Source of the DNA: Candidatus Dadabacteria bacterium
GTDB lineage: Bacteria; Desulfobacterota_D; UBA1144; Nemesobacterales; CSP1-2
Reading direction: 5' to 3'
DNA: 64,000 bases
Assembly: GCA_963805855.1 (NCBI GenBank)
Contig: CAWDVW010000002.1
Span: forward strand, 448,001-512,000
Position 1 is the first letter of the stretch. Each line of letters starts with the position of its first letter. The position numbers were made by a program, and so were the translations under genes. Below, piece by piece: positions 2,496-6,449 of the stretch. The notes beneath the pieces were generated by a model. It had not been told where the DNA came from. It saw nothing but the letters and a program-made list of their open reading frames with translations, and made no database searches.

Positions 2496-4916
2496 TCAGT
2501 TAAAATTAAACGGATCCACATCGGTTTGAATCTTAACATTACGCGATATTCTGCTCTCTCTTAAGATCATCGAAAGCTTTTTTGAAAAATTATGAAGTGC
2601 CCTCACGTTCCTCGATTTGAGTAACATTTGATAACGGTATCGATTTCTTATCTTATAGATTGGAGCGGGTGAAGGTCCGAGTATTTTTATCACTCCAATA
2701 GGCATCTTCGACACCAATTTTCTCGCCAGTTCTCCCGCAATCCCGGCCGCGTTTATAGTGTCCGATTCCACTCTACCCTGAAACCTGAAGTTTACCAGCT
2801 TCGAGAATGGAGGGTATTCTAAATCGTCTCGAAGCTTCAATTCCTCTTTTAAAAATCCAACACTGTCCTGTTCTAAAGCGAATTTAATGCTGGGATGCTC
2901 CGGATTAAAAGTCTGAACAATTACCCTTCCCGGCTCATCCCCCCTTCCCGCCCTGCCGGCAACCTGGGTAACCAATTGAAACGTTCTTTCTCCAGCTCTA
3001 AAGTCGGGTATTCCAAGGGACTGGTCCGCGGATACTACTCCCACCAGGGTTACACCAGGAAGGTCGTGTCCTTTAGCAACCATCTGGGTTCCAATAAGGA
3101 CATCCACCTCGCCCTTTTCTAATCTATCATAAAGACGAAGCAGCTTATTTTTACCCACGACCGCATCACTGTCCATTCTGGATATTGCGGCTGTTGGTAA
3201 AATGCTTTTAACCTCATCCTCAATCCTTTGTGTACCCATTCCCAAGCCTCTTAGCTCCTTTCCACATTTCAAACAATGGTCAAACAACTGCTCTGAAATC
3301 CCACAGTAATGACATTTAATCGAATTATCCCTCATATGATATGTCAACGAAATACTACAGTTAGGGCAGGAGACTATCTCCCCACATGCCTGACATGCAA
3401 CGAAGCTTGAAAAACCCCTTCTGTTGAGGAAGAGTATGGTCTGTTTCCCATTATTAGCGTTCTCTATTATCGCTCCCCTCAGAATTTTGGAAAACACCTT
3501 CCGCTTCTCGTTTCTCATGTCAACGATCTCAAGGGCTGGAAGCGTCCTGTCTTCAACCCTCAGAGGAAGTGAAAGATATGTAAACCTCTGTTTTTCTGCA
3601 TTTGCATAAGTTTCAACAGAAGGTGTGGCGGAACCGAGTATCACGACTGAATTTGTCATCTTTCCCAAAACCAGTGCTAAATCCCTTGCGTTATAACAGG
3701 GACTTTCATCCTGTTTATATGATGCCTCATGCTCCTCATCCACCACTATAATCCCCAAATTTTTAAACGGAGCAAAAATAGCAGATCTTGCACCTATAAT
3801 TACACTCACGCTCCCTCTACTTGCCTGCCTCCAGGCGTCGAATCTATCACCTTCACTAAGAGCACTGTGAATAACCCCTACCTTCTTACCAAACCTTCCG
3901 CGAAACCTCTTTACAAGTTGAGGCGTAAGCGAGATTTCAGGCACCAAAACGATTGCCTCCTTTCCCCTTCCGATAACTTCTTCTATTACTCGCAAATAAA
4001 CCTCTGTCTTCCCACTCCCTGTGACACCGTGCAGCAGGTACGGAGCGAACTTTTCCCTGGCTATAGAGTCAGTTATTTCCCGAAACGCCAATTCCTGATC
4101 CGGATTAAGGATCGGTGGACTCTCATGATTTAAAGGGATTACCGAAAACGGATCCCTCGAGATCTCTACCTGTTCTATCTTAATAAATCCGCTTTTGCTT
4201 AATTCTCTAACATGACGGCGGACATCACCGAAAACCTCTTTGATGCTCGTATAAGGAACCTGCTCATGAGAGAGTACATATTCCAGGATCTTTGCCTTAG
4301 CCGGACTCCTCCTCCCAAAAGCTTCATTCATGTTTGAACCTTCTATAGGCGAAAGAATAGTTTCAGTCTTAATCTTAGGGTCCGAACGAAGTTCATAATC
4401 AAATTCGATGAGTTTCTTTCTTCTAAGGGAATTAAGCGTCTCATGAGTAAGTCCATCTAATATGTTAAAGAGCCTTTCAACTGTAATTCCAGGAATACTG
4501 GTTAAAGTTTTTAAAACAACTTCCTCATACTGGCTTAATCGCTTTTTATGTGCGACGTCTTTCTTATATTTGCATAACTTCACAACCCTCCTCAGGCTAA
4601 TCCCAAGACCCCCGGGATGTGCTGCTTTGAGCACAATTCCAAGCGAAGTCATGTAGTACCTTGAAACCCACTTCAGAAAATCAAGCCTCTTTTCGTCAAA
4701 GAGCGGCTCCTCGTCAACAATATCACTAGCATCTCTTAGGCTTATCCCCTCCGGAGGCTCGGCAAGTCCAACTATGAAACCCAGCATCTTCCGATTCTTA
4801 AACGGCACTACCACCCGCTTCCCTATCTCAATTCCCCCTCTGAGGTGAGAAGGAACTGAGTAAGAAAATGTATCTTCATTTGGTATGGGTAAAGCAACCT
4901 GTACGACTTCTTTCAT
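2496..4916 (-). CDS. priA: Primosomal protein N' helicase
   Basis: GVTGSGKTEVY Walker A, DEEH box, Cys-rich Zn region, PDFRAGER, C-terminal DVDP; ATG at 4916 (track uses TTG 4922). Confidence 0.97.
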   Translation of the reverse strand: MKEVVQVALPIPNEDTFSYSVPSHLRGGIEIGKRVVVPFKNRKMLGFIVGLAEPPEGISLRDASDIVDEEPLFDEKRLDFLKWVSRYYMTSLGIVLKAAHPGGLGISLRRVVKLCKYKKDVAHKKRLSQYEEVVLKTLTSIPGITVERLFNILDGLTHETLNSLRRKKLIEFDYELRSDPKIKTETILSPIEGSNMNEAFGRRSPAKAKILEYVLSHEQVPYTSIKEVFGDVRRHVRELSKSGFIKIEQVEISRDPFSVIPLNHESPPILNPDQELAFREITDSIAREKFAPYLLHGVTGSGKTEVYLRVIEEVIGRGKEAIVLVPEISLTPQLVKRFRGRFGKKVGVIHSALSEGDRFDAWRQASRGSVSVIIGARSAIFAPFKNLGIIVVDEEHEASYKQDESPCYNARDLALVLGKMTNSVVILGSATPSVETYANAEKQRFTYLSLPLRVEDRTLPALEIVDMRNEKRKVFSKILRGAIIENANNGKQTILFLNRRGFSSFVACQACGEIVSCPNCSISLTYHMRDNSIKCHYCGISEQLFDHCLKCGKELRGLGMGTQRIEDEVKSILPTAAISRMDSDAVVGKNKLLRLYDRLEKGEVDVLIGTQMVAKGHDLPGVTLVGVVSADQSLGIPDFRAGERTFQLVTQVAGRAGRGDEPGRVIVQTFNPEHPSIKFALEQDSVGFLKEELKLRDDLEYPPFSKLVNFRFQGRVESDTINAAGIAGELARKLVSKMPIGVIKILGPSPAPIYKIRNRYRYQMLLKSRNVRALHNFSKKLSMILRESRISRNVKIQTDVDPFNFN

Positions 4917-4991
4917 GCTCAATTTGAGAGTCTAAACAGTTTAGTTCTTACTATCAATAATCCTGATTTAAAAACGGAGGGGGTTTCTTTT

Positions 4992-5019
4992 GTAGGGGCG
5001 GTCAATTGAACGCCCCTAC
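4992..5019. repeat. GTAG-type REP-like palindrome
   Basis: GTAGGGGCG-N10-CGCCCCTAC. Confidence 0.75.
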
Positions 5020-5038
5020 TCTCGATGCCAATGACAGG

Positions 5039-5062
5039 GATAGGCGGGGTTTTCTAACCTCG
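5039..5062. repeat. Short palindromic repeat (GATAGGCGGGGTTTTCCAACCCCGC family)
   Basis: Similar copies at 59057-59081 and 28188-28209. Confidence 0.65.
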
Positions 5063-5069
5063 TATATCA

Positions 5070-5435
5070 ATTGGATTGGGACATAGTCGTCACGTAGTTG
5101 CCGTCCACCAGCAAGACTGGTGGGTCACCGCAAGACGCAACTTAGAGGGTTAGCCGATAGGATCACAATTGAGAAGTAGCTAGCCCCATCTATCATCATT
5201 CCATAGGGCGGAAGAACCGGGAATAGCAGAGGCTCTTTAAAATCCTAATCAATAGGGAATGAATATGTCTATTTTACCGGGTAGCACAGAGATAGGCAGT
5301 ACTTTCCAGTGCAGGATGAGAACCTGAAGAGTCGCGGCGACGTTCTAAAAAGATGAAATCCCTGCTGTCTGGAATAAAACTTTATCCGTCAAGGACGGAA
5401 TAGTAGCAAGTTCTTTGACAAGACCTACCCAGCGT
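5070..5435 (+). ncRNA. Candidate large structured RNA of unknown class (may instead be a mosaic of repeats)
   Basis: About 10 mutually compatible stems in two multibranch domains, G-U pairs favouring the + strand, no ORF of 60 aa or more. Confidence 0.35.
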
Positions 5436-5483
5436 TTATTACCGAATTAGATGTTCAAAGATCATAATTCGTGCTTTGTATTT

Positions 5484-5535
5484 GTAGGCACAGACTTGTC
5501 TGTGCTATTTTTGGCACGAACAAGTTCGTGCCTAC
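5484..5535. repeat. GTAG-type REP doublet
   Basis: GTAGGCACAGACTTGTCTGTGC ... GGCACGAACAAGTTCGTGCCTAC. Confidence 0.75.
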
Positions 5536-5612
5536 AATGATTGTATACCGTCGGAACTGGGCCCGGTTGAAATGCGCCTTTGATTTTTCAATCAAAAATC
5601 TACAATTTCATG

Positions 5613-5651
5613 CTTCGACAGGCCTGTGCTGAGCTATGCCGAAGTGCTCAG
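5613..5651. repeat. CTTCGACAGGCTCAG-family repeat with a nested opposite-orientation copy
   Basis: CTTCGACAGG[CCTGTGCTGAGCTATGCCGAAGTG]CTCAG. Confidence 0.65.
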
Positions 5652-5729
5652 TGTAAAAGGGTTTTTGAACACTCCAACGTCGAACGAACAAAGCGCCTCC
5701 GGGAGGTGAAAAATCTTTATATCTCTCAT

Positions 5730-6449
5730 TTACCTAGTAGCCCTGAGATTCATATTGAGAAGCCAGTTATGAATTGGCGACATATCTCGAAAGATATTGA
5801 AGCAGTAACCGATAAAATCTTGCGAGTATATTTCCCCGGGAAGGGGGTTTTCGCAATATACGCCTAATCCATTAAATAACAGCCAGTCGGCGTTTGGATG
5901 CCGGGAATCATAACCCCTGGGTACCTTCTTATAATACCTCCACCCAATTGTACATGACGGATTCTTTGTCGCTTCTCTTACAGCGTTTACCATTTCAGCA
6001 CCGTATTTGGGGTGGACGACGGATTCTCTATAAGCCTCTAGTAAATGCCTTGGAAAAATATGAAGACCGACTCCGATAAAGAGTTTCGATTTACTTAAAT
6101 GCAGATAGAATCCGGAGTTATCCAACTTCTTTCGTGGACCTTCCCAAAAGAAAATCCCGAGGTGCGTCTTATAAGGCGTCTTATCTGCACTAAACCTAGT
6201 ATCACGGTTGAGCCTGAAAATTGATCGGTCTCTCCTCGGATCGGCTACCACTCTCGGCGCTATTGACCGAAGCCTTTTCCCCATGTCTACAACAAACCCC
6301 TCCGCAGGTTTCATCACATATTTATCGAAACGCCCCCGGTTCTCCTCAAACCAGCTTTTGTCATTGTGCTTTTCGAGATCGCTGAAAAATTTAAAGAATT
6401 CTTTACTAAAGCCATGGAAGCTTAAATCTTTGAACATAAATTCCTCCAC
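5730..6449 (-). CDS. DUF2461 family protein (TIGR02453-like)
   Basis: HNDKSWFEENR, FRLNRDTRFSADKTPYK, KKVPRGYD..HP motifs. Confidence 0.9.
   Translation of the reverse strand: MEEFMFKDLSFHGFSKEFFKFFSDLEKHNDKSWFEENRGRFDKYVMKPAEGFVVDMGKRLRSIAPRVVADPRRDRSIFRLNRDTRFSADKTPYKTHLGIFFWEGPRKKLDNSGFYLHLSKSKLFIGVGLHIFPRHLLEAYRESVVHPKYGAEMVNAVREATKNPSCTIGWRYYKKVPRGYDSRHPNADWLLFNGLGVYCENPLPGEIYSQDFIGYCFNIFRDMSPIHNWLLNMNLRATR

Follow-up and report, generated by a model that had tools for sequence, protein, structure and literature searches.

A strain-specific 300-nt insertion in a REP unit beside the target core of an IS110-family element in a Candidatus Dadabacteria genome

The locus described here lies between priA and a DUF2461 gene of a Candidatus Dadabacteria bacterium. 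All positions refer to the window, the whole stretch of 64,000 nucleotides that was analyzed (G000:C2:448001-512000), which comes from a genome of 3.1 Mb in 9 contigs (hereafter G000). The two genes flank an intergenic spacer of 807 nt (4923-5729), in and around which the following features were annotated.

2496..4922, minus strand: priA (primosomal helicase), downstream of the spacer, with the Pfam domains PriA_3primeBD, PriA_C, DEAD and Zn_ribbon_PriA
4929..4957, minus strand: promoter-like site, TTGATA-17-TAGACT, 9 of 12 matches
4992..5019, strandless: REP palindrome of 28 bp with GTAG...CTAC ends (inverted repeat I2), 93% complementary, about 8 BLAST copies in the genome
5040..5062, plus strand: the commonest REP hairpin of the genome, 60 copies in G000 at no more than 4 mismatches
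5097..5124, plus strand: left part of a two-hairpin REP unit, comprising a remnant of hairpin 1, hairpin 2 (5105-5123) and one G
5425..5468 (44 nt), plus strand: CTACCC foot of the REP unit and a conserved tail, 84-91% identical in the related genomes G006, G012 and G010
5482..5538, strandless: REP-like imperfect palindrome forming the right bracket (inverted repeat I1), 24-nt arms, 83% complementary, 3-5 BLAST copies
5730..6449, minus strand: DUF2461 gene, the upstream neighbor of the spacer (Pfam PF09365, E 1.1e-47)

Orthologs of priA in five relatives are 65-91% identical. The two genomes of the same genus, G001 and G002, have PriA proteins 91% and 85% identical to that of G000, with flanking DNA at 82-89%, and their similarity to the window ends at 4975 and 4966, respectively, to resume at 5716. 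The part of the spacer conserved within the genus is therefore the priA side to about 4975 only, a 50-nt segment that holds the promoter-like site. Since this conservation stops at about 4975, priA is not dependent on 5070-5435 upstream. At the matching priA-DUF2461 spacer G001 has 438 nt of unrelated sequence, and the syntenic spacers of G001, G002 and G007 are all unrelated to 5070-5435. This stretch is single-copy in G000, and comparison with 61 relatives, then with 120 genomes of the class and phylum, returned only repeat pieces of up to 46 nt. DNA nearly identical to that of G000 is present in salt-marsh, marsh and soil metagenomes. The priA-DUF2461 spacer is REP-filled and fast-changing.

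The REP hairpin at 5040-5062 gives many matches of 20-27 nt across 9 related genomes. The components of the two-hairpin REP unit are, in order, GGGTAG, hairpin 1, hairpin 2, G or A, and CTACCC; its hairpin 2 occurs in 14 copies in G000 at no more than 2 mismatches, with further copies in relatives. In intact copies from G000 and four other genera, (G/A)CTACCC comes immediately after hairpin 2. A 44-nt tail matching 5425-5468 follows the unit in G006, G010, G012 and G014, and in other genera (G006, G010, G012) the tail starts 1 nt after hairpin 2. In the window, hairpin 2 and the CTACCC with its tail are 300 nt apart. The pieces 4992-5019, 5040-5062 and 5097-5124 together with 5425-5430 have the characters of REP/BIME sequences, whereas the intervening 5125-5424 is single-copy and does not. 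Nested repeats are common in the relatives, where hairpin-2 loops hold another hairpin at loci L003 and L004. A k-mer repeat profile (k = 11, one mismatch) was too noisy for repeat mapping and was set aside.

The stretch 5070-5435 had drawn attention as a possible large RNA. The original prediction placed in it two multibranch domains, each closed by a helix, and every complementary segment that it named was found in place by a sequence check.

GACATA 5080-85 and TATGTC 5264-69, plus strand: closing pair of domain 1
AGTTGCCGTC 5096-5105 and GACGCAACT 5134-42, plus strand: arm of domain 1
5143-54 and 5179-92, 5196-5205 and 5253-62, plus strand: further arms of domain 1
GATTGG and CTAATC, plus strand: complementary segments of the proposed pseudoknot
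GGGTAG 5279-84 and CTACCC 5425-30, plus strand: closing pair of domain 2, whose inner stems are likewise in place

Other parts of this description were also borne out. The stretch is non-coding, the longest stop-to-stop frame inside 4923-5729 being at most 54 aa, and REP-like palindromes lie on both sides of it. Matches to known RNA classes were absent here as well: at the gathering score Rfam (the families at stake being RNase P, tmRNA, SRP, 6S, introns, HEARO, riboswitches and others) gave 0 matches anywhere in the window of 64 kb. A cutoff of E up to 10 brought 8 matches in 4850-5800, which all score far below gathering and all lie outside 5070-5435. The weak Rfam noise falls only in the right-bracket palindrome, 5482-5538.

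The claims that the stretch is highly structured and that its G-U pairs and purine-rich linkers favor the plus strand did not survive comparison with shuffled sequence. On the plus strand the minimum free energy of 5070-5435 is -97.6 kcal/mol and that of shuffles -95.2 +/- 5.5 (z -0.43); 33 of 100 shuffles are at least as stable. It is the minus strand that folds better (z -2.10, equaled by 2 of 100 shuffles). The 300-nt core 5125-5424 gives a folding z of -0.02 on the plus and +0.05 on the minus strand, and 5125-5264 a z of -0.53. The stems themselves are at chance level, with 14 complementary 6-mer pairs against 14.2 +/- 4.6 in shuffles and at least 14 in 264 of 500 shuffles. Stems picked by eye in REP-rich spacers can equal the level expected by chance.

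Metagenome contigs reveal what the stretch is made of. Contigs from four public runs, three of them DNA runs from three studies, were compared with 4600-6100. One contig in each of X1, X2 and X12 joins 5124 directly to 5425, at joint depths of 3.3, 20.5 and 2.9 and with sides of 30, 207 and 72 nt, respectively. No letters are shared at the joint, and the flanks of these contigs differ from the window by 0-12 letters. Segment 5125-5424 is a discrete 300-nt presence/absence polymorphism without target duplication, and it splits the REP unit one base after hairpin 2, before the CTACCC foot. As all other intact REP units are uninterrupted, insertion is the likelier direction of the change. A further joint in X2, which skips 5060-5103, was rejected, having a side of 20 at 85% likeness and probably stemming from another REP context. 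In the RNA run X20, matches fall on the REP pieces only, with mismatches, and the insert is uncovered, which says nothing about its transcription. The four runs examined have no depth on 5161-5415, and at most 0.54 of the words of the 807-nt spacer are present in any of 21 listed runs, values that are no proof that the filled form is absent in nature. No contig of the filled site was seen in the runs examined, and the G000 assembly is its sole witness.

The stretch thus consists of a REP hairpin, a 300-nt insertion and the remainder of a REP, and is not the single unit first drawn. Three main helices of the proposed fold, namely the two closing pairs (GACATA/TATGTC and GGGTAG/CTACCC) and the arm AGTTGCCGTC/GACGCAACT, pair the insert with its flank, and therefore cannot belong to a pre-existing RNA gene. 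The features found in the insert itself are as follows.

5125..5424, plus strand: strain-specific insertion, with empty-site joints in X1, X2 and X12 and a single copy in G000
5225..5283, plus strand: segment resembling an IS110 left end, 46 of 63 columns identical to positions 152-211 of the resident element described below, spanning a ribosome-binding site and start codon
5265..5327, plus strand: stub reading frame of an ATG, 20 codons and a stop, where an IS110 recombinase gene would begin
5347..5410, plus strand: diverged copy of the resident repeat R3, 49 of 64 identical to G000:C6:313889-313944, E 0.006 genome-wide

Searches for relatives of the insert returned little. Neither nhmmer nor sensitive BLAST found a second copy in G000, and among 119 other genomes of the phylum one 35-nt piece was the only match; a distant BLAST against plasmids and phages gave none. 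Three exact words of 22-24 nt from the insert had 0 occurrences in collections of metagenome, genome and viral contigs, from which records of the genome itself were possibly excluded. A full-length homolog, for which the original prediction had proposed a search, was thus found neither in 120 genomes of the phylum nor in plasmids or phages, and without homologs there is nothing for a test of covariation. By composition the insert passes for native DNA, ranking at the 34.6th percentile among 300-mers of the genome, and it differs from uniform random sequence. The R3 copies, six of which are listed, are the best genome-wide matches for insert positions 201-300, and a further R3-like match to 5347-5410 lies at C6:239647. 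Positions 5286-5306 (21 nt) are 76% like the abundant REP, and none of the repeat families of the genome accounts for about 220 of the 300 nt.

With no Rfam match, folding at the level of shuffles, no homologs, some stems that are genome-wide REP copies, and a 300-nt core absent from otherwise near-identical DNA in three metagenome studies, the idea of a new large non-coding RNA is not supported. That 5070-5435 is not a conserved structured RNA, and that it holds a mobile-DNA insertion and no RNA gene, is secure. The alternative put forward in the original prediction, the RNA of a non-autonomous mobile element, fares better: the core is a discrete piece of inserted DNA at an IS110 target site and has a weak collinear likeness to the bridge-RNA-bearing left end of a resident IS110-family element. 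The core looks degenerate, however, and is missed by a covariance model of the resident element's bridge RNA.

A census of transposases in G000 gave 7 IS110 hits, 10 Y1 transposase (Y1_Tnp) hits, one of them about 390 nt from a copy of hairpin 2, and 0 TnpB-type genes. One of the IS110-family elements bears directly on the locus.

G000:C7:605094-606523, 1430 nt: IS110-family element with a 409-aa recombinase frame carrying PF01548

This element sits in another copy of the same REP unit, with the arrangement GGTGGG-CT|IS|CT-ACCC, and a truncated second copy lies in a further REP copy on contig C5. Among the 14 hairpin-2 copies in G000, 3 are interrupted within 2 nt of one another. In addition, a contig of X1 has a loose end just before 5425 whose 30 nt are the last 30 nt of the C7 element; as the two are identical, the full element also occupies the window site in nature. 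Its left end, 195 nt in length, is non-coding and contains bridge-RNA-like guides. The first half carries the left target plus core and then the reverse complement of the core plus the right target, and the second half carries the element's own right end and then the reverse complement of its own left start. This order of four guides is the bridge-RNA layout given by Durrant et al. (2024; PMC11208160). Rfam gave no match to any bridge-RNA family even on the resident IS110 element. In a protein search, relatives of the recombinase at 93-56% identity came from metagenomes only, and the best relative within the phylum outside G000 is 28% identical; no related loci of the element were confirmed in genome and viral contigs. 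The other IS110 type of G000 (363 aa, 3 copies), which differs both in its ends and in its target, was discarded as a candidate.

The junction of the 300-nt segment lies 2 nt from the CT core used by this resident element. The insert shares with it the REP unit and the orientation. Its junctions read GGG|TC on the left and AC|CT on the right, with TC where an IS110 insertion should leave CT, so that the core dinucleotide is not found at both, and its ends do not match those of the resident element.

How far the insert resembles the element internally was assessed by alignment. Insert and element align collinearly and share their orientation with respect to the REP. When the insert was aligned locally with the element's first 260 nt, the score was 67; shuffles gave 30.6 +/- 5.4, with 0 of 300 as high, and all of about 6000 random genome segments also scored lower. 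Of 3000 random segments, 0-2 equaled the alignment in each of five scoring schemes and 12 in a sixth. The likeness is concentrated in the middle third (insert 101-200 against element 151-260; z 8.0-8.8, 0 of 2000 random segments as good). The right third (insert 201-300 against the last 150 nt) gives z 3.8-4.4 with 6-8 of 2000 as good, and the left third (insert 1-100 against element 1-150) z 1.5-2.1 with 85-251 of 2000; off-diagonal controls gave z of about -1. The right end, 5347-5410, matches R3 better than it matches the element, to which R3 is unrelated.

Unbiased genome-wide scans temper these values. In them the left end of the IS110 element comes no higher than 2nd to 5th among about 13,000 chunks, and other chunks score almost the same; one of these is an evident chance match of equal score inside an hflX-like gene. 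The rank-based p for the similarity is about 1e-3, a figure to be read in the light of the several candidate relatives that had been examined. A high-scoring match at C6:222313-222638 proved unrelated to the element, consisting of a gene's 3' end and an R3 repeat. The similarity between insert and element is not reported by nhmmer or BLAST, and the covariance model of the resident bridge RNA, in effect built on one sequence, finds no match in the window at E up to 10. As for the protein, recombinase HMMs (from 82 and 8 proteins) detected no remnant in the insert among 120,041 six-frame peptides, and tblastn searches of the insert with 14 transposase frames of G000 and with 40 IS110 proteins yielded noise only. 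An apparent C-terminal recombinase relic (AVW-NKT...AS) failed the HMM tests, and no recombinase frame or remnant was found in or beside the insert. By our reading of the alignment, the insert has a shortened equivalent of the donor-binding loop, and its loops disagree with the REP target: the left target is not copied in it, the corresponding loop lacks a CT, no match to the insert's own ends was found, and in the corresponding 3' loop GTAG only is kept.

That the insert is a strain-specific insertion in a REP at an IS110 hot spot, and not an RNA gene, is secure; its origin is a matter of weighing. The best-supported reading, to which we give somewhat more belief than doubt, is a REP spacer with a degenerate and functionless gene-less derivative of an IS110-family element that carries an R3 repeat. 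The 300 nt would have arrived by IS110-type site-specific recombination at the REP target, or by an aberrant version of it. From a related IS110-family element they may have retained a shortened left end, the ribosome-binding site, the start codon and the 20-codon stub. The recombinase gene would have been lost, and a diverged R3 copy would now stand near the right end. The stems listed above would then be REP hairpins, leftovers of bridge-RNA helices, or chance complementarity between insert and flank, and the 300-nt segment would have no present function.

Next comes a reading that we find unlikely yet worth serious attention, in which the 300 nt are unrelated to IS110 and are REP-mosaic or filler DNA that became lodged in the REP unit, either through the REP-spreading machinery, with Y1/HUH RAYT-type nicking at the hairpin foot, or through repair of a break there. 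The genome has the Y1 transposases that nicking would call for, one of them close to the same hairpin, and repeats nested in repeats are common in relatives, as at L003 and L004. The right part of the insert is a diverged R3, 5286-5306 is REP-like, and the insertion lies at a hairpin foot beside a GTAG/CTAC motif and a CT. TnpAREP enzymes recognize GTAG and cut at a CT adjoining REP hairpins (PMC8266576), and the CT duplication expected for IS110 is lacking here. However, the cut lies 5' of the CT, which is not a position shown for RAYTs, some 220 of the 300 nt belong to no repeat family of the genome, and there is no second copy, unlike the situation with REPs or PATEs. Moreover, the collinear likeness to the IS110 left end would need to be chance.

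A live rather than a degenerate element is doubtful. The 300 nt would in that case be a gene-less IS110 mini-element, an orphan bridge-RNA-like module moved as a circle by a recombinase acting in trans. Its donor core might have been TC and the target core CT, in a mismatched-core or half-match event; such a pairing would give exactly the observed junctions and a net gain of 300 nt.

It is rather improbable that the filled form is ancestral and that a precise excision or a deletion removed the 300 nt from the metagenome strains. Presence and absence alone give no direction, and precise excision of IS110 elements is described as possible (PMC13626964). Nevertheless, the other intact REP units, in G000 and four genera, have hairpin 2 directly before CTACCC, and the 44-nt tail likewise adjoins hairpin 2 elsewhere, so the unit existed uninterrupted before. 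There is no flanking repeat to drive a deletion, the joint has no shared letters, and a CAAGAC microhomology would yield a different product. Even if this account were true, the 300 nt would still be a mobile segment.

A functional RNA, either an orphan bridge-like guide working with the resident recombinase in trans or a strain-specific regulatory RNA, is very improbable. The insert does have two stem-enclosed non-coding modules at the places of the target- and donor-binding loops of the resident element, and its GGGTAG at 5279-84 is complementary to the right-flank CTACCC; this GGGTAG, however, comes after the start codon, outside the loop region. Gene-less RNA modules are known to ride on IS110 machinery, as with ssr9 of ISPpu9 (PMC12288879). 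Against this stand a folding z of about 0, the failure of the resident covariance model on the insert, loops that lack the left-target guide and the CT core, a shortened donor-loop region, ends that match no guide, and a single-copy segment with no homolog that conspecific strains lack. Very improbable as well is an assembly artefact that spliced 300 nt into the contig by error: the zero depth on 5161-5415 in 4 runs, the share of words of at most 0.54 in any listed run and the exactly round length of 300 would fit it, but the segment is complex and unique, its composition is native-like, and one of the repeats of the lineage is present in it as a diverged copy. Its position coincides exactly with the foot of a hairpin already proven to be a hot spot of insertion, the contig is back in the same locus after it, and two exact joins would be required for a chimera.

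The locus is a small but clean example of the use of a REP as a hot spot. A single REP hairpin has three natural alleles, namely empty, occupied by 300 nt of debris and occupied by a full IS110 element, which agrees with recent work in which IS110 elements read a sequence together with the stem-loop next to it. With guide segments that can be read and a target that is known, the resident element would lend itself to a laboratory test. Were the 300 nt a live mini-element after all, they would represent a non-autonomous, RNA-guided transposon in nature, seen as a polymorphism of recent date in a wild population.

PATEs are gene-less derivatives of IS200/IS605. Like them, the insert is short, gene-less, beside a hairpin and without target duplication. 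Unlike them, it has no ends in common with any Y1 element or locus of the genome and no further copies, and the transposase census of G000 holds no TnpB-type gene.

Several described systems resemble other sides of the locus. The flanks have GTAG/CTAC feet, a high copy number and a clustered arrangement, as do the REP/BIME sequences served by RAYT (TnpAREP) enzymes (PMC8266576, PMC3333891), and Y1 transposase genes are present in G000; the 300-nt core differs in being single-copy and mostly unique sequence. The description of IS110/IS621 (PMC11208160) offers a second set of likenesses: site-specific insertion into a REP beside a core dinucleotide, the absence of terminal inverted repeats and of target duplication beyond the core, and, in the resident element, a long non-coding left end before the recombinase start. 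The insert shares the orientation, lies 2 nt from the core and aligns weakly with the resident left end. It differs in having no recombinase gene, a TC left junction and a single copy, in loop regions that are shortened and match neither the REP target nor its own ends, and in escaping the covariance model of the resident bridge RNA.

In Pseudomonas putida, ssr9 of ISPpu9 is a gene-less non-coding module of an IS110-family element (PMC12288879). Modules of this kind are found alone in REP targets and are thought to use the recombinase in trans; several copies exist, they are transcribed, and the A' and B' end boxes of the parent element are preserved in them. The 300-nt insert, by contrast, shows no shared end boxes, no second copy and no transcript. 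As a gene-less, IS110-associated module in a REP target, ssr9 is nevertheless the closest parallel described, and the accessible literature on non-autonomous or miniature IS110 derivatives yielded no closer case. For ISPpu10, the target is a repeated intergenic sequence with a GC-rich stem-loop immediately 5' of the recombination site (bioRxiv 10.64898/2026.03.19.712850). There a role of the hairpin in the choice of target was tested. The geometry here is the same, with hairpin 2 directly 5' of the insertion site both for the resident IS110 element and for the 300-nt insert.

Apart from the 300-nt insertion that splits it in the window (5125-5424), the REP unit (GGGTAG, hairpins 1 and 2, G or A, CTACCC foot) is also the target of an IS110-family element resident in the same genome (G000; C1, C2 and so on are its contigs). 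One copy appears intact and a second is shortened:

G000:C7:605094-606523 (1297-2726 of excerpt L065), apparently intact IS110-family element, 1430 nt, with a 409-aa recombinase frame
near G000:C5:922140-923108 (excerpt L064), shortened copy, ending at ~947 nt

The left end of the C7 element carries all four predicted bridge-RNA guide segments, which match the REP target and the element's own ends, and TTGACA lies 8 nt from its right end. Like the C7 copy, the C5 copy adjoins a REP foot. The nearest protein relatives of the recombinase (93-56% identical) all come from metagenomes only, and none exceeding 28% identity was found among 120 genomes of the phylum. A second IS110-family type, of ~1.44 kb, is present as three identical copies whose ends are unlike those of the 409-aa element:

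G000:C2:116093-117181, 363-aa frame
G000:C7:152355-153443, 363-aa frame
G000:C7:641113-642201, 363-aa frame

It is flanked by ...ACTGAGGAA on one side and GCCTGTCGAA... on the other; a similar, unoccupied motif, CTTCGACAGGC...GCTGAGC, lies in the window at ~5613-5634.

The CTACCC foot is followed by a 44-nt tail. At least four genera share it, with 82-91% conservation, and it lies at unrelated loci, such as after radA or after dnaK. Its copy number is low (one in G000), and its + strand contains a promoter-like TTACCG-18-CATAAT.

Window 5425-5468, 44-nt tail
L003 1041-1084; L004 222-267; L037 1501-1543; L038 1501-1539; L002 ~1528-1575, the tail in other excerpted loci

Repeats are also nested within one another. 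In relatives G006 and G012 a small hairpin repeat occupies the loop of hairpin 2 (L003 ~1110-1150, L004 ~270-315), and these hairpin 2 copies are a repeat within a repeat. R3, a family of ~100 nt with a diverged copy inside the 300-nt insertion, forms a long hairpin (arms CGAAGCAATCT / AGATTGCTTCG) with a conserved 3' part, and its copies frequently lie within or adjoin other REPs:

G000:C1:25107, C6:313905, C6:246175, C6:239662, C6:238250 and C6:222334, - strand starts of R3 copies

One contig of the metagenome run X2 skips 44 nt at window 5059-5104, with a side of just 20 nt at 85% likeness; it is probably no second polymorphism but a REP junction from a different locus or a different organism.

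Abundant-REP copies flank two Y1 (RAYT-like) transposase frames on the window's contig:

G000:C2:679304-680163, 191 aa
G000:C2:684678-685147, 164 aa

A hairpin 2 copy is also present at one of these two loci, which is thus a candidate REPtron.
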